From Candidatus Rifleibacteriota bacterium (GTDB lineage Bacteria; Muiribacteriota; Ozemobacteria; Ozemobacterales; Ozemobacteraceae): a stretch of DNA of 32,879 nucleotides. The translations under genes were made by a program, and so were the position numbers. The stretch spans positions 1 through 32,879 of the forward strand of contig JBNJGH010000027.1 in NCBI GenBank assembly GCA_051747585.1, given 5' to 3'. How positions within the stretch are numbered: the first letter of the stretch is position 1; each line of letters opens with the position of its first letter. Shown here in pieces: positions 10,737-29,367 of this stretch. The notes under the pieces were generated by a model. That model had not been told where the DNA came from. It did not search any database and worked only from the letters and a program-made list of their open reading frames with translations.

Positions 10737-12071
10737 TCAGTAATTGAAGTTTGCTTCGTGTAAAGCTCTGATTCTTTCGTAAGCAACCTGTGCCTGTTGA
10801 GCTTTCTTTTTGTAGGGTGCGATATACTGAGCAATTATCTCGTTTCTGCGGTCGAGAAGGTCATCATACTCTTCTTCTGCTTCCCGAACGTCTTCCTGAT
10901 AAGGCCTTAAATATTCTCGTATGATTCTGTATTTGTTGTCCTGAATGTAGCGGTAATCGCGTTCGGCTCGATCCAAATTTCTTTTGGCATTATCGATGTC
11001 AAATTCAGTGGCGGTTTCAGAGTTTTGCACTTCTTTTAATTTTTCCCGGGCTCTTTCCAGGCGGCGGCGCGAGTTGTCTAGTTTATAATTGTAATGGCGG
11101 TCTGCGTCTCTTTTTGCTCTTCTTAAATCACGCTCTGCGTCGTCTATTTCTTCTCTGGCTCGGCGTAGTTTGTCTTCAAAATTGCGTTCTGCTGCTTCTC
11201 TTTGTCTTTGTAATATCTTTAATGCGGCATTGTAATCATTCTGGCTTCTATCAAGAATGCTGAAGCTGACTTTGGCAGGTGAAGCGCCCATATCTTCTGC
11301 AAGAAGATTTACAGCTTTTTTGTAGTCTTCGGTTGCTTGAACGAAGTTGTTTTGATAAGCCTGGGTTGCTTTAACGAGATATACATCAGATAATCTGCGG
11401 GCAAAATCGGGAAAATCTGCTTGTTTTTGCGGATAATCATATTCTTCTATCAGTTTTAAAGCAGTCAACTCGGCTGAATTGGCTGAGTAAGGTTCGAGAA
11501 TTTCAAAAAGCCAGTAAATTGAGTCTTTCATTCTACCGTCAAGTCTGTAACAATCAACTACTTCGAGCAGGGTAGCGTCAGATCGTCGCATTTCGAACAG
11601 CCATTTAATTGCTTGTTGATATTGTTTGAGTGCTTTATGGCAGCCGGCGACTCTGAATCTGATTTTATCAGTGCGGTTTTCTACTTTAAGGTAATATTCG
11701 ATGGCTTTTTTATAGTTGCCATGTTTTTCATAGCTGTAGGCAACCGAATAAACCATTTTCTGAACCTGATCAGATACAGATTTTACTTCTCTGTATGCCT
11801 TGTCAGTCAGTTTGTTTTGCTTCTCGATCTGAGCATCGAGGGCTTTCTTTTTACTACCCTGGAACCAGCCGCTGAAACCGTCATATTTTGATCGTTCCTT
11901 TTGCAGCTGGTCAAGCCTTAATTCAGGCTCAAGCATTTTTAATTCTTTTTGAATAAGTTCTTTTTCGAGAGCCTCTATATCATTTTCGTCTGCAGAGAAA
12001 GCGGGCAGACAAATCATTGCTAATCCAGCTGAAAAGAAGCCGGCAAAAATAATGTTTTTAGTTAATTTCAT
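10737..12071 (-). CDS. secreted TPR-containing coiled-coil protein, function unknown
   Basis: Signal peptide ending AFS-A; TPR-like 'VAYSYEKHGNYKKAIEYY' and 'VAGCHKALKQYQQAIKW'; long C-terminal coiled coil; AAAGGAG SD. Confidence 0.7.
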   Translation of the reverse strand: MKLTKNIIFAGFFSAGLAMICLPAFSADENDIEALEKELIQKELKMLEPELRLDQLQKERSKYDGFSGWFQGSKKKALDAQIEKQNKLTDKAYREVKSVSDQVQKMVYSVAYSYEKHGNYKKAIEYYLKVENRTDKIRFRVAGCHKALKQYQQAIKWLFEMRRSDATLLEVVDCYRLDGRMKDSIYWLFEILEPYSANSAELTALKLIEEYDYPQKQADFPDFARRLSDVYLVKATQAYQNNFVQATEDYKKAVNLLAEDMGASPAKVSFSILDRSQNDYNAALKILQRQREAAERNFEDKLRRAREEIDDAERDLRRAKRDADRHYNYKLDNSRRRLERAREKLKEVQNSETATEFDIDNAKRNLDRAERDYRYIQDNKYRIIREYLRPYQEDVREAEEEYDDLLDRRNEIIAQYIAPYKKKAQQAQVAYERIRALHEANFNY

Positions 12072-12089
12072 AATTGTCTCCTTTCAGCT

Positions 12090-13115
12090 TTATTGGTTTA
12101 AGTCCAGATAAATGTCGCCAAAATCAGTTTCGCTTTTGTAAACAGCGTTTCTTTTTGTCCCGTTTTGTCCGGTTACCCAGATTTTAACGACAGCGTTGTT
12201 GAAATGAAGTTTTTTAACGCCGGCTACATCTTTGTAAGTGCCAATTTTTTCAAGTCGGTTAAGGTGACCATTAGCAGCAAGATATTTAAATGGGTCTTTT
12301 TCGACGGTAGATTTGAAAAATCCTAGTTCGCCCATAACTGAATTACTGCGAGTGCGGTTCAATGTAACTTCAATACTGTTTTTACCTGACCAGAATCCGC
12401 CACAGGTTATTTCAACCATTGCTTTAAGGTCACTGTTGACCAGATCGCCGCCAAAATGATCGAGCAGAGCGTCAACGAGATATTTCTTTCCGGAAAAATA
12501 GAAATTATTTATTTTTTTGTCGTTGCCTTCTTCCTGGTTTTCGGCCAGAATTCTGCATTCATGTCTTTTAAAAATTGCTCTGAGATTATCTCTTCTTCGA
12601 TTCTTTTTGGTATCTGAAAGGGATATTATGGCTTCAACAATCGGTGTTTCGATGGTTATTAGTCGCTGTCTGCGACGGTTCATTAAAAGTTCGGGTGAAG
12701 TTGCCATTTCAAGATTACGATTAACTGTAATCTTTTTTTCTGCTTCGCTACTGTTGGAATTAATGAACTGTGCTCTTTGGGCCAGAAGCTTCTGGGCGTA
12801 GGCCGCTGTGTGTGAATTAGAGGCACTTTTGCTGCTGAATTCCGCCAGCAGGTCTTGAGCGGCTGAAAAATCCTCAGGCTTTTCAATTTCACTTATTAGT
12901 TCTTTAAGCCTGGTTTCTTTTCGGTCTGTTTGGTTGGCGATAGTTTCGTAGGCTTCTCTTTCGTCGCTTTCGGAGTTTTCGCTCAAAACGTAGGCAGTTT
13001 GGGCAATTCCTTTTGATAAATCTTCAAGAACGTTGTTAAAATCAGATTTGTCAAAAGCAAAACCGGTTACTGCAATAGCTGAAAAAATAAGCAGAAATGC
13101 AATTTTTCGAATCAT
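12090..13115 (-). CDS. secreted hypothetical protein
   Basis: 341-aa ORF with signal peptide MIRKIAFLLIFSAIAVTGFA; 18 bp from the next gene. Confidence 0.75.
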   Translation of the reverse strand: MIRKIAFLLIFSAIAVTGFAFDKSDFNNVLEDLSKGIAQTAYVLSENSESDEREAYETIANQTDRKETRLKELISEIEKPEDFSAAQDLLAEFSSKSASNSHTAAYAQKLLAQRAQFINSNSSEAEKKITVNRNLEMATSPELLMNRRRQRLITIETPIVEAIISLSDTKKNRRRDNLRAIFKRHECRILAENQEEGNDKKINNFYFSGKKYLVDALLDHFGGDLVNSDLKAMVEITCGGFWSGKNSIEVTLNRTRSNSVMGELGFFKSTVEKDPFKYLAANGHLNRLEKIGTYKDVAGVKKLHFNNAVVKIWVTGQNGTKRNAVYKSETDFGDIYLDLNQ

Positions 13116-19447: not shown

Positions 19448-19552
19448 GCTGGTTTTGGCAAAGGAGCTTAATTTCTGTCAATTCATTGCTGAAAATTTTA
19501 CTAAATTTTAGCAGGGGGCTTCCGAATTCTTATCTGATCAGTATAATGAAAT

Positions 19553-19568
19553 TGGTACACATTTTGCG
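19553..19568 (+). promoter_or_regulatory. sigma54 (-24/-12) promoter
   Basis: TGGTACACATTTTGCG, GG-N10-GC spacing, about 70 bp upstream of ATG 19640. Confidence 0.6.
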
Positions 19569-19639
19569 CCAAGTAAAAAGTGTCTTGAATATTATTGTTT
19601 ATTTTTATTCTAAAATTTATGTTTGGAGGGCAAAACCAG

Positions 19640-21163
19640 ATGTCTAGAAGTTTAACAAGAATTATTGCTCTGGTAGCGATCTTTTGTATGTTATTTTCTG
19701 TTGAGGCCTTTGCTGGTAAAGGTTCTGGCCACAGCGGACAAGGATTCTTCGCAAAAATAGGGGCCAAAGTAAAAGAGGCAACCCAGAAAGTAGGCAAAGC
19801 AGTAAAAACTGCAGCCAAGAAAACTGGCGCAGCAATTAAGAAGTCTGCCAAAAAGACGGGTGAAGCAGTAAAAGCTGCGGCTAAAAAGACCGGTGAAGCA
19901 GTAAAAGCTGCGGCTAAAAAGACCGGTGAAGCAGTAAAAGCTGCGGCTAAAAAGACTGGTCAGGCTGTTAAAAAAGCAGCAATCAAAACCGGCCAGAAAA
20001 TAAAAGTTGGCGGTGCAAAAGTTAATAATGCTTTTAAAGATTCCGGTGTGTGGATCAAATGGAAACTTACCGGTAAGAAAAAACGTGTATGGGTCGTTGG
20101 ACACTATGATAAAAACGGTAGATGGACCAAAGGTCACTGGAGAAAACTTACTCCTAAAGAAGCAGCACAAATGGGCGGTGGAAACTCTCCAGTTCAGGGT
20201 AATCATCCTGGTCAGGGCGATTCCCCGGGACAGTCCGGTCCAATCGCAAGTCCATTGCCACCTGCAGACGTTCCCGACGTTCCATCTCAGGATGCCGGAC
20301 AGGCTGGTCAGGCGGGACAGGCTGGTCAGACCTTACCACCTGCCGATGACGTAGGCCAGACTCCAGAAGCGCCTCCGGCAGATACGCCTGAAGATGACGC
20401 AGGCGAAGCTCCAGAAGCACCTCCGGCAGATGCGCCTGAAGATGACGCAGGCGAAGCTCCAGAAGCACCTCCTGCTGATATGCCTGAAGATGAGGGTGAA
20501 GCACCTGAAGATCCAGTTCTTCCTGAACTTCCCGATGAACCGGGTGATGTTCCAGAAGCACCTGAGCTACCACCAGAAGACGACGATGTTGCTCAGACAC
20601 CGGATGCTCCAGAAGCTGATGTTCCTTCACAGGATGCCGGACAGGCTGGTCAGAGCGAACAGTCTGGTCAGAGTGAACAAGCAGGTCAGACTGAGCAGTC
20701 TGGTGAATCAGAACAGGGCTCTCAGAGCGGCGAGGCAGAACAGGAACAGAAATTTGTCCATCAGGAAGTATCTCTCAGAACTCTGGGTATGTTAATGGAT
20801 GAACTGGTAGAAGATTCAAATTCAATTACCGATTATAAGCGTAGCTTCAATGAAACTCCTGGTATGAGCTTCTCTATGGATACCCAGGCTGATATTAACA
20901 GTCTTTATAAATCAAGAGAAAACAATGCTGATCTCCTGGCTAGAGTTATAGTTTATGATCTAGACAAAAATGAAGGCAGTGCTGGTAAATACTTCTCATA
21001 TTTCACCCACAAAATGAACAAGCTTGATGCAAATTCAAGAAAACTTATCAATGATGTCATCGAAGAAGTAAAAGAAGGTATTAAGCACAATTCTAACCAC
21101 GTTGTCGAAGAAGATGTTAAGGAAGCATTTGAAAAAAGACTTCAGGATATCAGTAACTACTGA
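19640..21163 (+). CDS. secreted low-complexity repeat protein (basic 11-mer repeats, YXWGXW-like motif, acidic Pro-rich linker, helical C-terminus)
   Basis: Signal peptide ending AFA; GGAGG SD before ATG 19640; K-rich, then P/E/D/A-rich, then GQx segments. Confidence 0.8.
   Translation: MSRSLTRIIALVAIFCMLFSVEAFAGKGSGHSGQGFFAKIGAKVKEATQKVGKAVKTAAKKTGAAIKKSAKKTGEAVKAAAKKTGEAVKAAAKKTGEAVKAAAKKTGQAVKKAAIKTGQKIKVGGAKVNNAFKDSGVWIKWKLTGKKKRVWVVGHYDKNGRWTKGHWRKLTPKEAAQMGGGNSPVQGNHPGQGDSPGQSGPIASPLPPADVPDVPSQDAGQAGQAGQAGQTLPPADDVGQTPEAPPADTPEDDAGEAPEAPPADAPEDDAGEAPEAPPADMPEDEGEAPEDPVLPELPDEPGDVPEAPELPPEDDDVAQTPDAPEADVPSQDAGQAGQSEQSGQSEQAGQTEQSGESEQGSQSGEAEQEQKFVHQEVSLRTLGMLMDELVEDSNSITDYKRSFNETPGMSFSMDTQADINSLYKSRENNADLLARVIVYDLDKNEGSAGKYFSYFTHKMNKLDANSRKLINDVIEEVKEGIKHNSNHVVEEDVKEAFEKRLQDISNY
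19793..19990 (+). repeat. six 33-bp tandem repeats (GEAVKAAAKKT)
   Basis: Units start at 19793, 19826, 19859, 19892, 19925 and 19958; units 3-5 are nearly identical. Confidence 0.95.
20363..20510 (+). repeat. three about 48-bp tandem repeats (PEAPPADxPEDDAGEA)
   Basis: Units start at 20363, 20411 and 20459. Confidence 0.9.
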
Positions 21164-21180
21164 TAACATTTAATAAAATG

Positions 21181-21212
21181 AGAGCCACATTTTTATGTGG
21201 CTCTTTTTTTTT
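21181..21212 (+). terminator. intrinsic terminator
   Basis: AGAGCCACAT-TTTT-ATGTGGCTCT followed by a T-tract. Confidence 0.9.
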
Positions 21213-21234: not shown

Positions 21235-21263
21235 TTGATTACTTTGTTTTACAGCTCTAAACT
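21235..21263 (+). promoter_or_regulatory. sigma70-type promoter
   Basis: TTGATT-17 bp-TAAACT. Confidence 0.55.
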
Positions 21264-21281: not shown

Positions 21282-22832
21282 ATGAATTCGAAACTTGGAA
21301 AAATTTTTCTTGTTCTTTCGCTTATATTATTGGCTGCAGTTGTTTTAAGGCTTGCCGGCCCCGAAGAAACAAAACATTATCACCTGATTTTAACCGGTGT
21401 AAGCAAGGGGCGATTACACCCGTATCGAGCAAGGTTTAAACCACATAAAGGTCAGCTGGTTGGAGGGGCTGCCGGTCTGTCGGCTTTGATAAAGAACAGA
21501 GTCGCTTCTTTTGGCCGTGATCCATATAATCTTGTATCTGTTGGCAGCGAACTTTCTGGTACAGCTGATGCATATTTTACCAGAGGAGCAGCAATAGTAT
21601 CTGCTCTTAACGGAATCGGTGTCGAAGCGATGCTTGTTGGTAATATAGAGTTTACCTTTGGTCAGAAACGGTTGTCAGAGCTATCTGAGCAGGCAGAGTT
21701 TCCGTTTCTCAGTTCTAACGTCACAGAAACAGGACCCGGGCAGATTCCCGCATATTTAACTCCCGAGGTAATTCTCTATCCTGGTCAGAGTATTAAAGTC
21801 GGTTTTGTCGGTCTTACACCGCCACAGACTCCTGATTTAACTTTTGCTCCTAATGTTGTCGGGCTTGAATTTGCCAAAGTTGAAACCGCCCTTGAAAATA
21901 GAATTCTTTCATTAAGAAAAGCAGGGGTCGATATTATAGTCTTGTTAACCTTGTTAAACAGCAAAAAAATAAATTCCAGGCAATGGAAATCAATTGTAAA
22001 TGTAAGGCCCGATGTATGTATAATGCTTGATTATGAAATAGAAGCTCCGAGAGTGGTTAGGAAAGATGGTATAATTATCAAAACTATTAGTGGATATAAC
22101 AAGACTAAAGAAATAGACACTCTTGATTTAGCTCTAAGAGGGAATCCGGCTAAAATTGTCGCTTTTTCGGGATCGCGACATGTGGTAAATCATGCCGAAC
22201 TTATTCCGGATAAAGAAGTTGCTGAAATAGTCGAAGAAACAACCAGAAAAGTGCGAGAATTAAAAAAAGAAAAGATTGCCGAGTTTGCCCGCGATTATCA
22301 GCGCAAATATTATCGAGAAGGGCCTATAGGGAACATGGTTGCCGATGCCATGAAAGCTGAAACCGGAGCAGAAGTCGCTTTGCAGAACGCAGGTGGTATT
22401 CAAAACAATATTAGCTCTGGAACATTTACTGTCGGCGATTTATTTAACGTACTGCCCTTTGATAATCAGCTTGTTACAATGCAGATTTCAGGAAGTGCCC
22501 TGCTTGAAATCCTTTCTCAGTCTGCCAGCCTGTATCGTGGTGTTATGCAAGTGTCTGGCATGTCATATGCCTTTGCCAATCGTGAAGAGGATGATTATGA
22601 GTTAAAGTGGGCAAAAATTAATGGTGAGCCTGTAGTGGCAACCAGAACTTACTCTATTTGTACTAATAGTTTTCTTGCGTCGGGTGGCGATAATTTTCTC
22701 GGTTTCAAACAGGGCAGAAATCTGGAATATGGAAGAATTCAAAGAGATGTCGTTAAAGACTATCTTGCTCAATTCCAAGATGAATGGCCTGTTGAACTAA
22801 TGGTGGAAGATAGAATAAAAATTGTAGATTGA
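21282..22832 (+). CDS. exported 5'-nucleotidase (UshA/CpdB-like) homolog with degenerate metallophosphoesterase site
   Basis: Signal/anchor helix; 'GNIEF.FG', 'FPFLSSNV', 'KVGFVGLT'; clear 5'-nucleotidase C-domain 'GNMVADAM', 'N.GGI', 'VLPFDN', 'QVSG', 'FLASGGDNF'; metal ligands substituted. Confidence 0.85.
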   Translation: MNSKLGKIFLVLSLILLAAVVLRLAGPEETKHYHLILTGVSKGRLHPYRARFKPHKGQLVGGAAGLSALIKNRVASFGRDPYNLVSVGSELSGTADAYFTRGAAIVSALNGIGVEAMLVGNIEFTFGQKRLSELSEQAEFPFLSSNVTETGPGQIPAYLTPEVILYPGQSIKVGFVGLTPPQTPDLTFAPNVVGLEFAKVETALENRILSLRKAGVDIIVLLTLLNSKKINSRQWKSIVNVRPDVCIMLDYEIEAPRVVRKDGIIIKTISGYNKTKEIDTLDLALRGNPAKIVAFSGSRHVVNHAELIPDKEVAEIVEETTRKVRELKKEKIAEFARDYQRKYYREGPIGNMVADAMKAETGAEVALQNAGGIQNNISSGTFTVGDLFNVLPFDNQLVTMQISGSALLEILSQSASLYRGVMQVSGMSYAFANREEDDYELKWAKINGEPVVATRTYSICTNSFLASGGDNFLGFKQGRNLEYGRIQRDVVKDYLAQFQDEWPVELMVEDRIKIVD

Positions 22833-22872
22833 GTTTATTTTTTAGTTAAGTTTGGCTGCAAAAGGCTTTAAA

Positions 22873-22901
22873 TTGTTTTTTTATTCTGGAAGTGGTAGAA
22901 T
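22873..22901 (+). promoter_or_regulatory. sigma70-type promoter, nearly leaderless, for the HD-GYP gene
   Basis: TTGTTT-17 bp-TAGAAT with TGn, ending 9 nt before ATG 22911; no SD. Confidence 0.5.
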
Positions 22902-22910
22902 CCTAAAGTA

Positions 22911-24494
22911 ATGTTTGATATATCCTGGTTAAATCAGACTGGCGGCAAAGTCAGCAAAGAAGCCTTGATTCGTGAAAACGAAGTTCTGAAAAAACAAATT
23001 CATGAACTTCTGAATCTCGATGAAACCGGCTTCTTTATTGAGTTAAACTCACTTTTAAAGGCGATTTTAAAAAAAGCTCTGGTTTTGTGCAAAGCAGAGT
23101 CCTCTTTTTTCTCTCTTGCCGGCAAAGACCCTGCAGAGCTAGATGTCAGAATCAGTAACATGATTCTTGAAGAAAAAATGGAAAACATTCGCCGCAAATT
23201 CAAACAAGAATATATTCGCTGGCAGGAATCCGAAACTCCTATTATAAGTATAGACGATTTTATACTTTTGCCTCTGGTTAGAAGGCATCGAATGTTGGGA
23301 GTAATAGGCTTGAAGCTCACCGCTGAAGCTCCCGAAAATATTTGCGAAATACTGCCGATTCTTGCTTCACAGGCAGCCGCCTCGCTTGAAAGTGCAATTC
23401 TTTACGAAAGAATGTTTAAAAGGCTTCTTGTTTTGAGCAATGTTTTTATTCTCGGTAAAGAGATTGTAACCAACATCGACCTTGAACCGCTGGTAGAGAA
23501 ATTCCTCTCCATTGCCCGCGATGGCACCGATAGTGAAGTTGCCTGTATTTTTCTGGTCAGAGAAGGCGATGCAAAACCCTACTTTACTCAGGTTCAGCTT
23601 GCCGAAGGAACTACAACTTTTTCCAAAGAATCCTGTGCAGGTTATACAGAGTTCATAAAAGCTATCAGACAGGAAGAAAAACACAAGCTGATTACCGATC
23701 TTGAAAAAAGTGAATTTTGTCAGGTCGAGAAAAATAAAGTCGTGGGTATTGAATTAAGAGACACAATTGCTTTGCCAATGAAGCCCAGGGATAAATTCCT
23801 CGGGGTAATTCAGGTGGCCAACAAAAAAGGCAATTCTTTGTACCGCCCCGAAGATCTTGATTTGTTAAAAATTCTTGGCAACCAGATTGCATTTGTCATT
23901 CAGAATGCTGATCTCTTCAATAATCTTCAGAATGCTTATATCGATACTTTGTCTGCGCTTACCAGTGCAATCGATGCCAAAGACAGCTATACCCGCGGCC
24001 ACTCAGAGAGAGTCACCGAGCTATCTATTCAGCTTGGTAACGAGCTTGGGTTAGCTCAGGAAGAAATAGAAAAAATTAAACTTGGAGGCCTTTTACATGA
24101 TATCGGTAAAATCGGTATTCCTGAAGGCATCCTCAATAAGCCCGGAAGACTCGATGACGAAGAATTTAAAACCATCAGATCGCACCCTGAACTTGGAATT
24201 CGAATTCTTGGTAAAGTTGAATTCCTTTCTGGAATTGTTGATGTCATTAAACATCATCATGAGCGCTATGACGGCAAAGGCTATCCGGAAGGGCTTGTCG
24301 GCGACAAAATCCCTCTGCTTGCAAGAATTATTGCAGTTGCAGATACTTTTGATGCAATGACGACGGATCGACCTTACAGAAAGGCTTTAACTGTAGATGA
24401 AGCTTTAAAAGAAATAAGACATTGTTCGGGGTCGCAATTCGATCCTGAGATTGCTCCGGTATTTATAAAAATGATTCGCAAAAGCAAAAATTAA
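22911..24494 (+). CDS. GAF-GAF-HD-GYP cyclic di-nucleotide phosphodiesterase
   Basis: GAF signatures 'LPL......LGVI' and 'LPM......LGVIQVANK'; HD-GYP motifs 'AIDAKDSYTRGHSERV', 'LLHDIGK', 'HHERYDGKGYP', 'IAVADTFDAMT..RPYR', 'QFDP'. Confidence 0.95.
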   Translation: MFDISWLNQTGGKVSKEALIRENEVLKKQIHELLNLDETGFFIELNSLLKAILKKALVLCKAESSFFSLAGKDPAELDVRISNMILEEKMENIRRKFKQEYIRWQESETPIISIDDFILLPLVRRHRMLGVIGLKLTAEAPENICEILPILASQAAASLESAILYERMFKRLLVLSNVFILGKEIVTNIDLEPLVEKFLSIARDGTDSEVACIFLVREGDAKPYFTQVQLAEGTTTFSKESCAGYTEFIKAIRQEEKHKLITDLEKSEFCQVEKNKVVGIELRDTIALPMKPRDKFLGVIQVANKKGNSLYRPEDLDLLKILGNQIAFVIQNADLFNNLQNAYIDTLSALTSAIDAKDSYTRGHSERVTELSIQLGNELGLAQEEIEKIKLGGLLHDIGKIGIPEGILNKPGRLDDEEFKTIRSHPELGIRILGKVEFLSGIVDVIKHHHERYDGKGYPEGLVGDKIPLLARIIAVADTFDAMTTDRPYRKALTVDEALKEIRHCSGSQFDPEIAPVFIKMIRKSKN

Positions 24495-24495
24495 A

Positions 24496-27054
24496 ATGAA
24501 ATTTATTCGCAATTCTCGTTTTATTGAACGTTTATTACTCTCAGTTATTGTAATATCTCTGGCTTGTTTCGCCTATTATTTTTCACTGGCAGATCTTCAA
24601 GAGCAATCAAGAATTTTTAAGAAACAGCGTATTATGCTGGTGAAGCTTTTGGCAGATGAAATAATTGAGCTTGCCGATCGCAAACTTGATTTAACTCCAA
24701 GATTGAAAAATCTGCTTGCCGAAGAAGCTGTTGCCTATGCTCTGGTTCAGCAATCAGACGGTGCAGTGATTGCCAGGGCCGAAAACCAGTCTTTACCCAT
24801 TGGAATTCTTCGCAAGGTTGAAGAAAAGGCTTTAAAGGCAACACATCTTACTCTGATTCCATTCAAAGATACATCCGATACTTTTTCTCTTATTGAAGTG
24901 GCAATGCCGGTGATTATTTCAAATGGAAACAAGCTTATACTCAGAGTTGGTTTTTTTCGTAATCAAGAGCTGGCAAAGCGAGATCATATAAGATTCAGAA
25001 ACATTCTTTTCTTTTCTCTTATTTTGCTGGCAATGTTTCTTTACTGGTTTGTAAGAAAACATCATGCTTCGAGTTTGCAACACACATTGCTTGGTGGTAG
25101 CGCCCTGTTGATTTTAATTCTGTTTCTTGCCACCAGAGTAACAGTTCAGAACTGGTATGATAAAAATTGGCGCGAAACTTCTGTCCGACATGGTTTGTAT
25201 CTGAGCAAGGTATTTACCCCCGCTGCTATGAGATTTATAGAAACCGGCGAAGACAAAGACCTCAAGAATGCTTATGAGCTCGTTGCCTCCGATGAAAATC
25301 TTGCCTATATAAGCTTGATTAAAGATGATCAAATAATTTTTCATTCCGACCCAACTCAAATAGGTAATTCTGTAGCCGAAGAAGCAGGTTATCAGATGAG
25401 CCTGAACTATGACAGGCCAAGAATTTTAAAGCTTGAAGAGCCTGATATGTACGAAGCTTATGTGCCCATCATGAAGGGAATGCATCGCCTGGGAACCCTT
25501 AAAACTGGTCTAAGAGATAATTCAGGCTATGAGCATCTTTCAATTTTACGTGATCGCCTGATTTTAATTTTTATCGTCGGTCTTGTTTTAATGCTGTTTT
25601 TTATGCATCTTCTGTCACGCCGGGTATCAAAAGAAATTAACTGGTTTATAAAAGCCATGGATCAGATAACTGCCGGTGATTTACGCCAGAATATTTACAT
25701 AGAAAGAAACGATGAGTTTGGACAGCTTGCTCATGCTTTTAATTTCATGCTTATGAGCATGAAAGAAAGAGATCTGATTGGTAGAGGCTTGCAGCAATAT
25801 GTTAGCCGAAGTATTGTCGAAAGAACCCTTAAGGCGGTCGCTGGCCACGAAAAAAATGGCGAAAAATTGTTTGCCGTTTCTTTTTTCCTTTATTTCAGTG
25901 GTATAGATGAAGCTATTTCAAGGGTCGAAGGGGGACGAGTTTTTTCAGCGGTTCAGGAGTGTTACACAGTTGTAAGAAAACTGTGTCAATCATTCAATCA
26001 CGCACATCTGCAAATGTTTCCCTCGGGAATTCTTGTGTTGTTTACCTACCAGAACAAACATGATTCTTTATTGAAAGCTTTAAATCTTGCTAAGCTCACT
26101 GCCCGCGACCTGGGGCGTCGTCCCGAGATGCCCTTTGCTCCAAAAGTTACCATGCATGCCATGGATATGATTCGGGGCCGGGTTGTTGGCAACGAAAAAG
26201 ATTCTGCTTTTATTGGTGATGGTTTTGCTGATTTTAGAACTTTAAGCAAGATTCAAGACAGCGATGAAATTATTGCCAGCCGCGAACTTCATGTTTTACT
26301 CAAAGATGTAATTAATTTTGAAGAACTTGAAGTGCTATCGGGTGAACAGGGGCGTTTTAATGCATTTGTAATTAGAAACTTCAAAGATCATCAAGAACTG
26401 TTAGAAAGCTATTCAGAAGCCACTGCCTGGTCCAGAATAATGGTTCTTCGTATTATTAAAACCTCTGATGAGCTTGAAACTCCTGAGCTGCTTTATAAAT
26501 GGTATGAAGACGAAAATAGTGAAGTAAGATATCAGGTTCTGGATGCTCTCGAAAAAATTCGGCCCGAAGGCCTGTGTGATTTTGTTGTTGAAGTTCTTAA
26601 AAAAGAAAAAGACCCCAAAGTTCTTTCCCGAGCGATTAGATTGCTTGGTCATATCGGCAACGAGGAGCATGTGTCTGTTATTTCAGAGCAGTTGCGTTCA
26701 GAAGATCGCAGGGTAAAGGCCAATGCGGTAGAAGCTCTTGAGGCTATAGGCGGCAAAAGAGTTTATGAATTTCTTAACCTGCTGGTTGATGAAAAAGATA
26801 ACAGAGTTAAGGCAAATATTCTCATAGCTCTTGGCAAATATGGTGATTTAAAGGTTTTCGACCTTTTGTCGCGAATGATTCAGGATTCTGACAGTCACAT
26901 GAGGGCTTCGGCTGCTTATGCACTTGGACGCCTGGGCATGGCTCAAGGGGTTGAGCCTCTGGTGGCTGCGCTCTCAGATAAAGATCCGATGGTGCGCAGG
27001 CAGGTCGTAGCTTCGCTTACATCGCTGAGAGCCGATCTGGATATCGAGATTTAA
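24496..27054 (+). CDS. membrane sensor protein: two PDC/Cache-like extracytoplasmic domains, HAMP, degenerate class III nucleotide cyclase-like domain, HEAT repeats
   Basis: Four TM segments; HAMP 'ITAGDL...I.IERNDEFGQLAHAFN.M'; post-HAMP 'QYVSRSIVE'; cyclase-like 'AFIGDG' and 'EIIASRE'; HEAT repeats 'RVKANAVEAL', 'MRASAAYALGRLG', 'ALSDKDPMVR'. Confidence 0.75.
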   Translation: MKFIRNSRFIERLLLSVIVISLACFAYYFSLADLQEQSRIFKKQRIMLVKLLADEIIELADRKLDLTPRLKNLLAEEAVAYALVQQSDGAVIARAENQSLPIGILRKVEEKALKATHLTLIPFKDTSDTFSLIEVAMPVIISNGNKLILRVGFFRNQELAKRDHIRFRNILFFSLILLAMFLYWFVRKHHASSLQHTLLGGSALLILILFLATRVTVQNWYDKNWRETSVRHGLYLSKVFTPAAMRFIETGEDKDLKNAYELVASDENLAYISLIKDDQIIFHSDPTQIGNSVAEEAGYQMSLNYDRPRILKLEEPDMYEAYVPIMKGMHRLGTLKTGLRDNSGYEHLSILRDRLILIFIVGLVLMLFFMHLLSRRVSKEINWFIKAMDQITAGDLRQNIYIERNDEFGQLAHAFNFMLMSMKERDLIGRGLQQYVSRSIVERTLKAVAGHEKNGEKLFAVSFFLYFSGIDEAISRVEGGRVFSAVQECYTVVRKLCQSFNHAHLQMFPSGILVLFTYQNKHDSLLKALNLAKLTARDLGRRPEMPFAPKVTMHAMDMIRGRVVGNEKDSAFIGDGFADFRTLSKIQDSDEIIASRELHVLLKDVINFEELEVLSGEQGRFNAFVIRNFKDHQELLESYSEATAWSRIMVLRIIKTSDELETPELLYKWYEDENSEVRYQVLDALEKIRPEGLCDFVVEVLKKEKDPKVLSRAIRLLGHIGNEEHVSVISEQLRSEDRRVKANAVEALEAIGGKRVYEFLNLLVDEKDNRVKANILIALGKYGDLKVFDLLSRMIQDSDSHMRASAAYALGRLGMAQGVEPLVAALSDKDPMVRRQVVASLTSLRADLDIEI

Positions 27055-27123
27055 ACCTTTAGAGGTTAATTAATAAAGTTTATTAAATTACAAGGCAAGT
27101 GTTTCACAAGAAAGGAGGCTGTC

Positions 27124-28413
27124 ATGACTTTTCAGGAAGCTTATGAAAAAGGAAATGAGGCTTTAAAACAACAGGATCTCACCCAGGCCCGCAAATACTT
27201 TGAAGAGGCTTTGAGAATTAAACCCAACGATGTTTATACCATGAACAAACTGGCCATGGTTTTAAAAGAAAAAGGGGAATTTGACGACGCCATGGGGCTT
27301 CTAGATGATTCGCTAAAACTTAAAAAAGAAGACCTTTATACTAATTATCTTCTCGGAAACACTTATCTTGAAGCAGGCAACATAGATAAGGCAATAGAAA
27401 CCCTTGAAAAAACCGTTAAGCAGAACCCATCAGATAGATATGCCAGAAACTCCCTGGCTCTGGCATATAGAATGAATGGTGATTATCACCAATGCATCGA
27501 AATACTCAAAAAAGCTCTTGAAGTTAATGATTCTGATCTTTATAACAAGCTCAGCCTTGCTACTGTTATGTTTGAAATAGGTGACTCAGAAGAAGCAGAG
27601 AACCTTGCCAATAATATCTTGAAGTTTGATTCTCAGAATCTTTCTGCAATGGTTCTTCTTGGTCGAATTGCTATCGATAGAGGTGATTTTCCTGCCGCGC
27701 AAGGCTACTTTAACAAAGTTCTTTCTATCGATGCCAGCAACAGTGAGGCACATTATTATATAGGCAGAATTTGCCTTGAAACCTCTTCTATTGAAGAAGC
27801 TACCACTCATTTTAATGCTGCTCTGCAGTCAGACAGCGAGAAACTTTCGATTTCCAAAAATCTTGGCCTTATTTTTATGGATAAGGGGATGTACAAAGAA
27901 GCCGAAGAGCAATTTGCTACCGCGATTAATCTCGATGGTGAAGATGCTTTTACCCTTAGTAACATGGGAAAATTACTGGTTTTGCAGGGAAAATTTGATG
28001 AAGGTATAGGTTATTTGAAAAAGGCAATCGAATGTCAGCCTGACTATGCTTTTGCTTACTATAATCTGGGGAAGGCTTATCAGGAAAAGAAAGATTTTCC
28101 CAATGCCATTTATAATCTCATGTTTGCTCTTAATTATGAGCCGGATGATGTTTATGCAGTGAATGTTCTTGGTAGAATGTTTCTTGACGTCGGCCTGAAT
28201 GACAGAGCTTATAGAACATTTGATCAGGTTCTTCAGGAATTTGATGCCGAAGATAAATTTGCCCTGCTTGGCAAGGCTGAGGCTCTTGAAGCAATGGGAG
28301 AATACGAAGAAGCTTTGACTTTACTCGAACAAACTAAAAAGTTTGAAGATATTGATAAAATAATGCTCGAAAAAATTGAGTCTTCAATCAAGCGTATAAA
28401 GAACAGGAGTTAA
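27124..28413 (+). CDS. cytoplasmic tetratricopeptide repeat protein (about 12 TPRs)
   Basis: Regular 34-aa periodicity throughout; AAAGGAGG SD. Confidence 0.92.
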   Translation: MTFQEAYEKGNEALKQQDLTQARKYFEEALRIKPNDVYTMNKLAMVLKEKGEFDDAMGLLDDSLKLKKEDLYTNYLLGNTYLEAGNIDKAIETLEKTVKQNPSDRYARNSLALAYRMNGDYHQCIEILKKALEVNDSDLYNKLSLATVMFEIGDSEEAENLANNILKFDSQNLSAMVLLGRIAIDRGDFPAAQGYFNKVLSIDASNSEAHYYIGRICLETSSIEEATTHFNAALQSDSEKLSISKNLGLIFMDKGMYKEAEEQFATAINLDGEDAFTLSNMGKLLVLQGKFDEGIGYLKKAIECQPDYAFAYYNLGKAYQEKKDFPNAIYNLMFALNYEPDDVYAVNVLGRMFLDVGLNDRAYRTFDQVLQEFDAEDKFALLGKAEALEAMGEYEEALTLLEQTKKFEDIDKIMLEKIESSIKRIKNRS

Positions 28414-28415
28414 AA

Positions 28416-29312
28416 TTGCTCAAAAGATTCAATATTAAAGTTCCAACAGAGTTTGAAGAACCTCTGATCGGTCTTGCCGAGCGCTTTGGGGTGAACGTTT
28501 TTTCCAGTCCGGTTATTAAAGAAACTGATCGGGGAGAAACCGATTACGACTTTACCGGCGAGACAACTGTATCTTTTATTGTTTCCGATACTGAGCAGAA
28601 TCCGGAAGATATTTATACCCACATTTGTAATTGGCTTAAAGAAACCGGTTTAAAAAATGTTAAACCACAGGTTGAAGAGTATAGTGACAACCAAGACTGG
28701 ATGGCTGGCTTCAGAGAGCATTTTAAAACTTTGCATGTTGGTAAAAATATTGTTATAAGGCCTCCCTGGGATCACCTGACAGCAGAAGAAAACAATATTG
28801 TTGAACTCATAATTGATCCGGGAATGGCTTTTGGTACAGGAACTCATGAAACTACCCGGCTTTGTCTTGAACTTTTAGAAGAAATAGATGTTGCGGGAAA
28901 TTATTTCCTTGATATGGGTGCCGGCAGCGGTATTCTTTCTTTTTATCTTATGAAAAGAGGGGCAGCCGCCGGTATGGCAGTTGAACTCGAAGGCGCAGCC
29001 GTAGAGAATATGAAAAAAAATGCTTCGGCCAACGGTATGTCTGATCGCCTTAAAATGATCTGCTCCGATATTCAGTCTTTCGAGCCTTCCATTCCTGCTG
29101 ATGGGCTTGTTGCAAACATTACCTCACCTGTTATCTTAGATAATATTGCTATCTTGTCGAAAATGGTAAAATCTGGTGCCTGGGGTGTTTTTTCCGGTGT
29201 AAACAGCACCAATGCTCAGAAGGTAAGAGATGCCTTCTGGCAAAATAACTGGGAAGAGGTCAAGGAAACCCGGGAAGGTGATTGGCACGGTTTTTATCTC
29301 ATAAAAAAATAA
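28416..29312 (+). CDS. prmA: 50S ribosomal protein L11 methyltransferase
   Basis: 'DW...FREHF', 'IRPPW', 'IDPGMAFGTGTHETT', SAM motif 'LDMGAGSGILS', 'VANI'; TTG start after AGGAG. Confidence 0.93.
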   Translation: MLKRFNIKVPTEFEEPLIGLAERFGVNVFSSPVIKETDRGETDYDFTGETTVSFIVSDTEQNPEDIYTHICNWLKETGLKNVKPQVEEYSDNQDWMAGFREHFKTLHVGKNIVIRPPWDHLTAEENNIVELIIDPGMAFGTGTHETTRLCLELLEEIDVAGNYFLDMGAGSGILSFYLMKRGAAAGMAVELEGAAVENMKKNASANGMSDRLKMICSDIQSFEPSIPADGLVANITSPVILDNIAILSKMVKSGAWGVFSGVNSTNAQKVRDAFWQNNWEEVKETREGDWHGFYLIKK

Positions 29313-29328: not shown

Positions 29329-29367
29329 AAAAAAGAACCCGAACTTTCGTCCGGGTTCTTTTTTTTT
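29329..29367. terminator. bidirectional intrinsic terminator
   Basis: AAAAAAGAACCCG...CGGGTTCTTTTTTTTT. Confidence 0.9.

Follow-up and report, generated by a model that had tools for sequence, protein, structure and literature searches.

To our knowledge, few extracellular inputs into cyclic di-GMP (c-di-GMP) signaling are known, and their accessory binders have so far been either of the ATP-binding cassette (ABC) type or PruR. Here we compare with such systems a locus of Candidatus Rifleibacteriota bacterium lying in a stretch of 32,879 nucleotides (contig JBNJGH010000027.1 of assembly GCA_051747585.1; hereafter the window), in which five genes (21282..29312) code for a catalytically dead 5'-nucleotidase homolog, a GAF-GAF-HD-GYP phosphodiesterase, a membrane receptor with a dead class III cyclase domain and HEAT repeats, a TPR protein, and PrmA. 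A preliminary description of this DNA had joined all five into one nucleotide-sensing relay, whose architecture it did not recognize from any described system.

In the PruR-DcpA system of Agrobacterium tumefaciens, an enzyme-derived pterin sensor binds the periplasmic domain of DcpA (PMC11194511). As far as the available part of that account goes, PruR is an exported member of an enzyme family that lacks a key catalytic/metal residue and retains its ligand cleft, and whose gene lies a few bases before that of a two-transmembrane (TM) c-di-GMP enzyme; the dead nucleotidases found in tandem with cyclases (see below) are similar in these respects. PruR, however, has a small SUOX fold and senses pterin, whereas the present proteins have the full two-domain UshA/CD73 fold with a nucleoside as the predicted ligand, and the partner to which they are predicted to bind is of the dCache-HAMP-GAF-GGDEF type. 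The bicistronic arrangement is matched by a second dead nucleotidase (paralogue B), by orthologues in two other families, and by one relative within the window's family, whereas the window gene adjoins that of a cytoplasmic HD-GYP protein with its own promoter. The NspS-MbaA and ScrB-ScrC systems, whose GGDEF/EAL receptors are stimulated by solute-binding proteins (PMC8050422), offer a comparable pairing of an accessory periplasmic binder gene with that of a dCache-like c-di-GMP receptor, but their binder is an ABC-type solute-binding protein, and neither nucleotidase nor nucleoside occurs in the accessible text of that review (0 matches).

In a literature search that left subscription papers and supplements outside its reach, neither a dead 5'-nucleotidase tied to c-di-GMP enzymes nor the window receptor turned up in any paper. 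The dead-nucleotidase system belongs to c-di-GMP sensing through accessory binders, here with a new scaffold, and is not a demonstrated five-gene relay. Our reading of the whole, which we hold to be about evenly poised between right and wrong, is that the dead nucleotidase serves a membrane c-di-GMP receptor as its periplasmic subunit for binding nucleosides, and that the dead-cyclase/HEAT receptor controls the HD-GYP protein by contact in a separately transcribed pair, with the TPR and prmA genes as passengers. If true, a dead UshA/CD73 homolog would be a new receptor scaffold for c-di-GMP, and the signal would likely be a nucleoside, e.g., from lysed cells or extracellular DNA breakdown.

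The dead 5'-nucleotidase homolog and its pocket

The nucleotidase homolog of the window (21282..22832, + strand) is a membrane-anchored/exported protein with one N-terminal hydrophobic segment (residues 8-26) and matches Pfam 5_nucleotid_C, with no match to Metallophos. Its structural model (predicted local distance difference test [pLDDT] 90) has the two-domain metallophosphatase + 5_nucleotid_C fold of UshA/CD73, with the best fold match being 3ivd, a 5'-nucleotidase with uridine (Foldseek E 4.5e-45); the closest solved relative was crystallized with uridine/cytidine. By alignment to 3ivd, 2z1a, and UshA, the positions of UshA D41, H43, D84, H117, and H217 are occupied by V40, K42, S89, I122, and L224, respectively, and the GHxH motif has become LDYE (D250/E252). 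We take D41, H43, D84, N116, H217, and GHxH to be the dimetal ligands of UshA, of which N116 (N121 in the window protein) is the only one retained, in 35/35 sequences of clade A, to which the window protein belongs. None of the 35 retains D41, H43, D84, H117, H217, or the GHxH histidines, with Ile/Leu standing at the catalytic His117 position in each of them (35/35), Lys/Arg at that of H43 (34/34), and Gln at that of the phosphate-binding R410 (33/35). It is in these replacements in the dimetal site, the catalytic His, R410, and the H43 position that the clade differs from UshA, CD73, and CpdB, with which it shares the two-domain fold and the aromatic base clamp. The clamp residues F393, N395, F464, and D470 (UshA F429, N431, F498, and D504) are invariant (35/35), F429 and F498 being the base-stacking ones. 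In the accessible part of a paper on this family, H117 is catalytic, F429/F498 stack on the base, and a His117Ala mutant of CpdB still binds and is inhibited by adenosine, with the binding site in the C domain (PMC7922932).

Of 13 pairs, 8 have a dS <1.5, and summed over these the ratio of nonsynonymous to synonymous substitution rates (dN/dS) of the nucleotidase gene is 0.071, with the same test giving 0.054 for the HD-GYP, 0.058 for the TPR, and 0.078 for the PrmA gene. Given that the catalytic residues are lost, the base clamp is invariant, and dN/dS is low, the homolog is a maintained pseudoenzyme under purifying selection; its C-domain pocket suits a nucleoside and, judging from its residues, likely binds one. 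The proposal in the preliminary description that both neighbors of the HD-GYP gene encode full-length pseudoenzymes is thereby borne out: catalytic residues are retained in none of the 35 clade-A nucleotidases, and the loss in the receptor is likewise conserved, with a dN/dS of 0.12 for its cyclase domain (8 pairs; inflated by one truncated-gene pair at 0.43, the others lying between 0.00 and 0.10). The dead nucleotidase genes are mis-annotated as active nucleotidases.

Tandem dead nucleotidases and diguanylate cyclases

A profile of the dead nucleotidase matches 62 of 87 genomes of the phylum at 1e-60, some via active paralogues. In what follows, f1 is the family of the window genome (G000), f3, f5, f7, f9, and f11 are other families of the phylum, and the remaining G and L codes denote relatives' genomes and fetched loci, respectively. 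The dead sequences form one clade (Shimodaira-Hasegawa [SH] support 0.987 in a 66-row tree, FastTree only), comprising clade A, f3/f5/f7, f9/f11, paralogue B, and further clusters. Among ten dead-sequence clusters looked up, three bear organism names, Riflebacteria or Wallbacteria, and one f3-type dead sequence is named Wallbacteria.

Paralogue B, a second dead nucleotidase of 694 aa with a duplicated C-terminal domain, lies directly before a dCache-HAMP-GAF-GGDEF gene in all 20 fetched loci as well as in G000 and G007 (22/22, the 22 examined out of 51 family genomes; one cyclase among the 20 fetched loci is frameshifted). This cyclase has two TM segments, a dCache-like-HAMP-GAF-GGDEF architecture, and a GGEE motif, and its gene overlaps that of paralogue B, mostly by 14 bp (a gap of -14 bp). 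The paralogue B locus is found after uvrD, on contigs C94:11881-13068 and C55:2-3104 of G000 and at L067:1355-5495. Other dead orthologues directly precede a cyclase of the same kind in f3 (8/8) and f7 (1/1 evaluable), and the clade-A gene of G007 lies 37 bp before one of the dCache-HAMP-GAF-GGDEF type. Most nucleotidase-cyclase pairs overlap by 4 or 14 bp, a stop/start overlap that persists across clades at 22-27% identity, and none of the tandem cyclases has its own promoter pattern (0/29). As a control, a GGDEF or HD-GYP gene occurs within 3 kb downstream in 0/53 nucleotidase loci outside the dead clade (53 of 79 metagenome loci, 29 of them with at least 2 kb of downstream sequence). In G007, paralogue B and its cyclase seemed to be fused in one frame of 1408 aa, but this arose from N gaps where the two genes meet, and in G022 a spuriously long frame of 1394 aa holds an active nucleotidase; a single-sequence search with the G007 sensor was too insensitive to be used.

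In a cyclase tree of 21 rows, from which four GGDEF domains of G000 lacking the anchor motif were left out, the cyclase of G007 clusters with those of f3/f7 (ultrafast bootstrap [UFboot] 97), and because of this clustering the f3/f7-type cyclase is the predicted ancestral partner of clade A. It is distributed in f3, f7, and, within the window's own family, only G007; neither G000 nor the other 49 family genomes hold a close match, their best matches being the paralogue B cyclase or others, and for the window copy the ancestral cyclase appears to have been lost from the genome.

By analogy, the dead nucleotidase most likely works as PruR does with DcpA, i.e., as a periplasmic binder of enzyme ancestry that serves a c-di-GMP receptor. 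Its C-domain pocket would take a nucleoside or base without hydrolysis, its hinge would close in the manner of UshA, and docking of the closed or open form on a Cache domain would set c-di-GMP synthesis. We doubt the opposing idea that it acts outside signaling as a periplasmic binding or structural protein (in nucleoside scavenging, or as an envelope scaffold with the acidic protein encoded upstream), with the cyclase adjacency being inherited gene order. That idea would accommodate its constant company with the acidic gene (35/35), its own promoter, the want of cyclase linkage in f5, f9, f11, and G013, and the strong block-level synteny in the window's family, but it is opposed by the retention of the stop/start overlap with the cyclase at such low identity, by the lack of internal promoters before the cyclases, and by the empty control loci. 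Returning to the receptor-subunit reading, the most likely partner of the window nucleotidase is a Cache receptor in trans, e.g., the paralogous cyclase on C55, with the adjacent receptor less likely. The suggestion of the preliminary description that the nucleotidase binds a ligand and docks on the neighboring receptor thus survives in part: it is a likely binder tied to c-di-GMP signaling, but its phylum-wide operon partner is a diguanylate cyclase and not the adjacent receptor. The tandem pairs constitute a small two-gene system open to direct testing, for which the paralogue B pair is best suited.

The HD-GYP protein, its membrane receptor, and their linkage

The HD-GYP gene (22911..24494, + strand) codes for a cytoplasmic GAF-GAF-HD-GYP phosphodiesterase that, as first described, is intact in all its motifs (DAKDSYTRGHS, HDIGK, HHERYDGKGYP, and RPYRK). 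These correspond to the HD, HHExh(D/N)GxGYP, and RxY[K/R] motifs, all listed in the available text on PmGH-type GAF-HD-GYP proteins (bioRxiv 10.1101/2021.11.05.467447), with RxY[K/R], the c-di-GMP motif, favoring c-di-GMP as the predicted substrate. From the PmGH type, as presented there, the window protein differs in having two GAF domains and in belonging to a predicted leaderless unit with a dead-cyclase/HEAT receptor. The promoter of the gene (TTGTTT-17-TAGAAT with a TG extension; 22873..22901, + strand) lies 9 nt before the ATG, with no Shine-Dalgarno sequence in between. The pattern TTG-N16-18-TAnnnT precedes the HD-GYP gene in 37/37 genomes (vs 4.6 in shuffled sequence), also where the nucleotidase is not upstream, and the extended -10 box stands 6-11 nt from the ATG in 34/37, again without a Shine-Dalgarno sequence, pointing to a predicted leaderless transcript. 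The HD-GYP motifs are degenerate in G013 and G024, and the gene is frameshifted in G015. In one genus (L047:6610-8208, L053:6399-7961), a degenerate HD-GYP (HDLGK/HETGK, RPYRP/RPHRT) stands beside a full-length receptor.

The receptor (24496..27054, + strand) has the architecture TM-PDC-TM-TM-PDC-TM-HAMP-dead class III cyclase-HEAT, with 4 TM segments, two of which form a hairpin between the two single PDC domains. PDC1 aligns with the WalK ectodomain (Z 13.5, root mean square deviation [rmsd] 2.5, 129 aligned) and PDC2 with CitA (Z 12.7, rmsd 3.1, 121 aligned), and the class III cyclase fold is recovered with Z 15.2 (rmsd 3.4, 172 aligned). The class III catalytic set presumably consists of two metal Asp, the substrate Lys, and the transition-state Asn/Arg; when the domain is aligned by profile (probability 97%) with the genome's own 32 cyclase domains, Y466 and S510 stand at Asp1 and Asp2, Q506 at Lys, A578 at Asn, and T582 at Arg. 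Orthologues show the same loss. The cyclase domain has no match by sequence in PDB, and a related-locus search of genome contigs with the receptor found none either. HEAT and HAMP are its most conserved parts, the last HEAT repeats being the best conserved of all. Cache-HAMP class III cyclases, including cyclase-HEAT fusions (Atlas cluster, commonest in Spirochaetota, score 0.85), have the same sensor, HAMP, cyclase fold, and HEAT tail, but the window receptor differs in lacking all catalytic residues and in its split pair of single PDC domains. A paralogous sCache-HAMP-degenerate cyclase-HEAT protein of 749 aa, apparently also without the catalytic motifs, is encoded at L065:6186-8435 (G000 contig C75). 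By local profiles the genome holds 32 class III cyclase domains, 17 GGDEF, 9 HD-GYP, and 29 HEAT-repeat open reading frames (ORFs), an unusually rich complement of signaling proteins.

The receptor occurs in 45/50 other genomes of the family and 0/36 outside it. It is absent from G019 (96% complete), in which the HD-GYP gene is joined to the TPR gene and the nucleotidase is retained, and lacks HAMP and most of the HEAT region in five genomes of one genus; all six genomes with a lost or truncated receptor retain the nucleotidase. The truncated versions (L045, L104-L107) are of 609-649 aa and keep both PDC domains and the dead cyclase.

We propose that the receptor would relay an extracellular signal via HAMP to its pseudocyclase-HEAT output, which would bind the co-transcribed HD-GYP protein, making the pair a candidate case of a membrane receptor governing a cytoplasmic HD-GYP in trans. 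A cAMP-based route appears quite improbable to us: in it, the dead cyclase would be a decoy or scaffold heterodimerizing with native cyclase domains, and the HD-GYP protein would respond to a cyclic nucleoside monophosphate (cNMP) at its GAF domains and not to contact. The wealth of class III domains in the genome, the precedent of the cAMP-dependent GAF-HD-GYP Tlr0485 in the accessible portion of its report (bioRxiv 2021.11.05.467447), and an NK..Y...D stretch in GAF2 speak for it; however, that stretch is common among the genome's other GAFs, the receptor cyclase domain retains neither set of half-site residues and cannot complement, and the predominance of HEAT and HAMP conservation points to a protein partner.

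Regarding transcription, the preliminary description was right that the five genes are co-oriented (+ strand, with intergenic gaps of 78, 1, 69, and 2 bp), that a hairpin follows them only at 29329, and that a promoter-like element, which the relatives show to be real, precedes the HD-GYP gene. The order is conserved in relatives, yet as part of a longer block that runs from yhdP to DUF6263, and the junctions, tallied over evaluable relatives only, are uneven. The HD-GYP and receptor genes are adjacent in 43/44 (gaps of -4 to 48 bp), and no promoter pattern precedes the receptor (0/35); these two are the unit held together by evolution, as the preliminary description had tied them. The nucleotidase and HD-GYP genes lie within 900 bp in 38/41 (one with two inserted genes, two broken), and the receptor and TPR genes are adjacent in 33/39 (three gatCAB insertions, three broken); both figures are close to that of the convergent, non-operonic control junction between PrmA and the next gene (29/33). 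The nucleotidase gene has a predicted sigma70-type promoter of its own (TTGATT-17-TAAACT; 21235..21263, + strand), the pattern recurring in 29/34 upstream regions (vs 3.5 shuffled). The stretch is therefore three units within a conserved block and not one relay operon: the HD-GYP gene starts its own transcript, the nucleotidase persists where the receptor is lost or truncated, and the junctions at either end of the pair resemble the control. Transcription may read through from the nucleotidase gene, and also past the pair into TPR-prmA.

A more ambitious version holds that dead 5'-nucleotidases are periplasmic nucleoside receptors for c-di-GMP across the phylum, and that the window copy exchanged a diguanylate cyclase for the pseudocyclase-HEAT receptor driving the HD-GYP, giving the same input an inverted output via two pseudoenzymes; we consider it unlikely. 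The partner swap at its core, with the adjacent receptor activating or inhibiting the HD-GYP by contact, seems to us similarly improbable. The complementary distribution of receptor and ancestral cyclase would fit such a swap, as would the proximity of nucleotidase and HD-GYP genes, between which the window has no clear terminator, so that read-through could occur; furthermore, in a mirror-tree test the nucleotidase and the receptor ectodomain have the top rate correlation among nucleotidase pairs (0.72-0.80). However, an unrelated pair reaches 0.87 in the same test, the HD-GYP gene has its own promoter in 37/37, the nucleotidase-HD-GYP adjacency is no better than the control, the nucleotidase keeps a dN/dS of 0.06-0.10 where the receptor is without HAMP and HEAT and survives in the receptor-less G019, and the receptor ectodomain has no profile match to the dCache of the tandem cyclases beyond TM/HAMP.

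Several observations weigh against the overall reading of a nucleoside-binding subunit and a contact-controlled HD-GYP. The tree of dead nucleotidases, made with FastTree only, has long branches; the dead orthologues of f5 (2 genomes), f9, and f11 precede other genes with no cyclase, namely those for PlsY (2 genomes), Gcw_chp (1), and an unknown protein (1); and the f5 relative of the cyclase is unlinked to its dead nucleotidase. The genomes are related to one another, and the tandem pairs counted may go back to only two or three origins, maintained over long periods, and not to 32 events. A fusion of a dead nucleotidase to a signaling domain was not noticed among the 150 best representatives, where the long matches were His-motif proteins and other domains were not scanned. 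Because the clamp residues are also present in active nucleotidases, among 24 invariant C-domain positions, their conservation may be partly structural, and D504 is not retained in clade B, nor in 8/12 sequences of f3/f5/f7. Finally, 6 genomes with an intact HD-GYP have a degenerate receptor or none, and the HD-GYP is degenerate in two genomes still carrying the receptor.

Flanking genes

The all-TPR protein (27124..28413, + strand) and PrmA, the ribosomal protein L11 methyltransferase (28416..29312, + strand; the sole copy found in the genome), are coupled (adjacent in 34/34) and likely passengers: the junction tallies give no link to the signaling pair or the nucleotidase, and the place assigned to them in the relay is not supported. 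PrmA matches its Pfam family with 173 bits (cut-off 22) and TIGR00406 with 169.6 (cut-off 183.15) and has the motif DPGxAFGTGxHxTT; names such as MamA or PilW for the TPR protein came from matches below cut-offs and were not adopted. The promoter pattern precedes the TPR gene in 8/30 relatives (vs 2.2 shuffled), the window not being among them, and PrmA in 0/29; a generic promoter scan, with 25 sites against an expected 21, picked up neither of the two conserved promoters. A bidirectional terminator-like hairpin with a T run (29329..29366, no strand assigned; -17.5 kcal/mol) separates prmA from the convergent gene. A pair of genes elsewhere in the window (10737-13115; 444 and 341 aa) has orthologues inserted between nucleotidase and HD-GYP in G012, G023, and L127.

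Upstream of the nucleotidase, an exported acidic low-complexity protein (19595..21163, + strand) with no Pfam match combines a Lys/Ala-rich repeat N-terminal part with Pro/Asp/Glu/Gln-rich repeats; its gene ends in an intrinsic terminator (21180..21205, + strand) and is adjacent to the nucleotidase gene in 35/35 relatives, including both genomes with a broken nucleotidase-HD-GYP junction. A small STAS gene lies between yhdP and the acidic gene in most relatives, and the window has no listed ORF of at least 100 aa at 19450-19594. Among RNA contigs of four salt-lake runs (two studies), none spans any junction of the five genes, which are represented by scattered short pieces; the acidic gene is well covered in all four, and a contig of one run stops at 21179, near its terminator, a weak indication.

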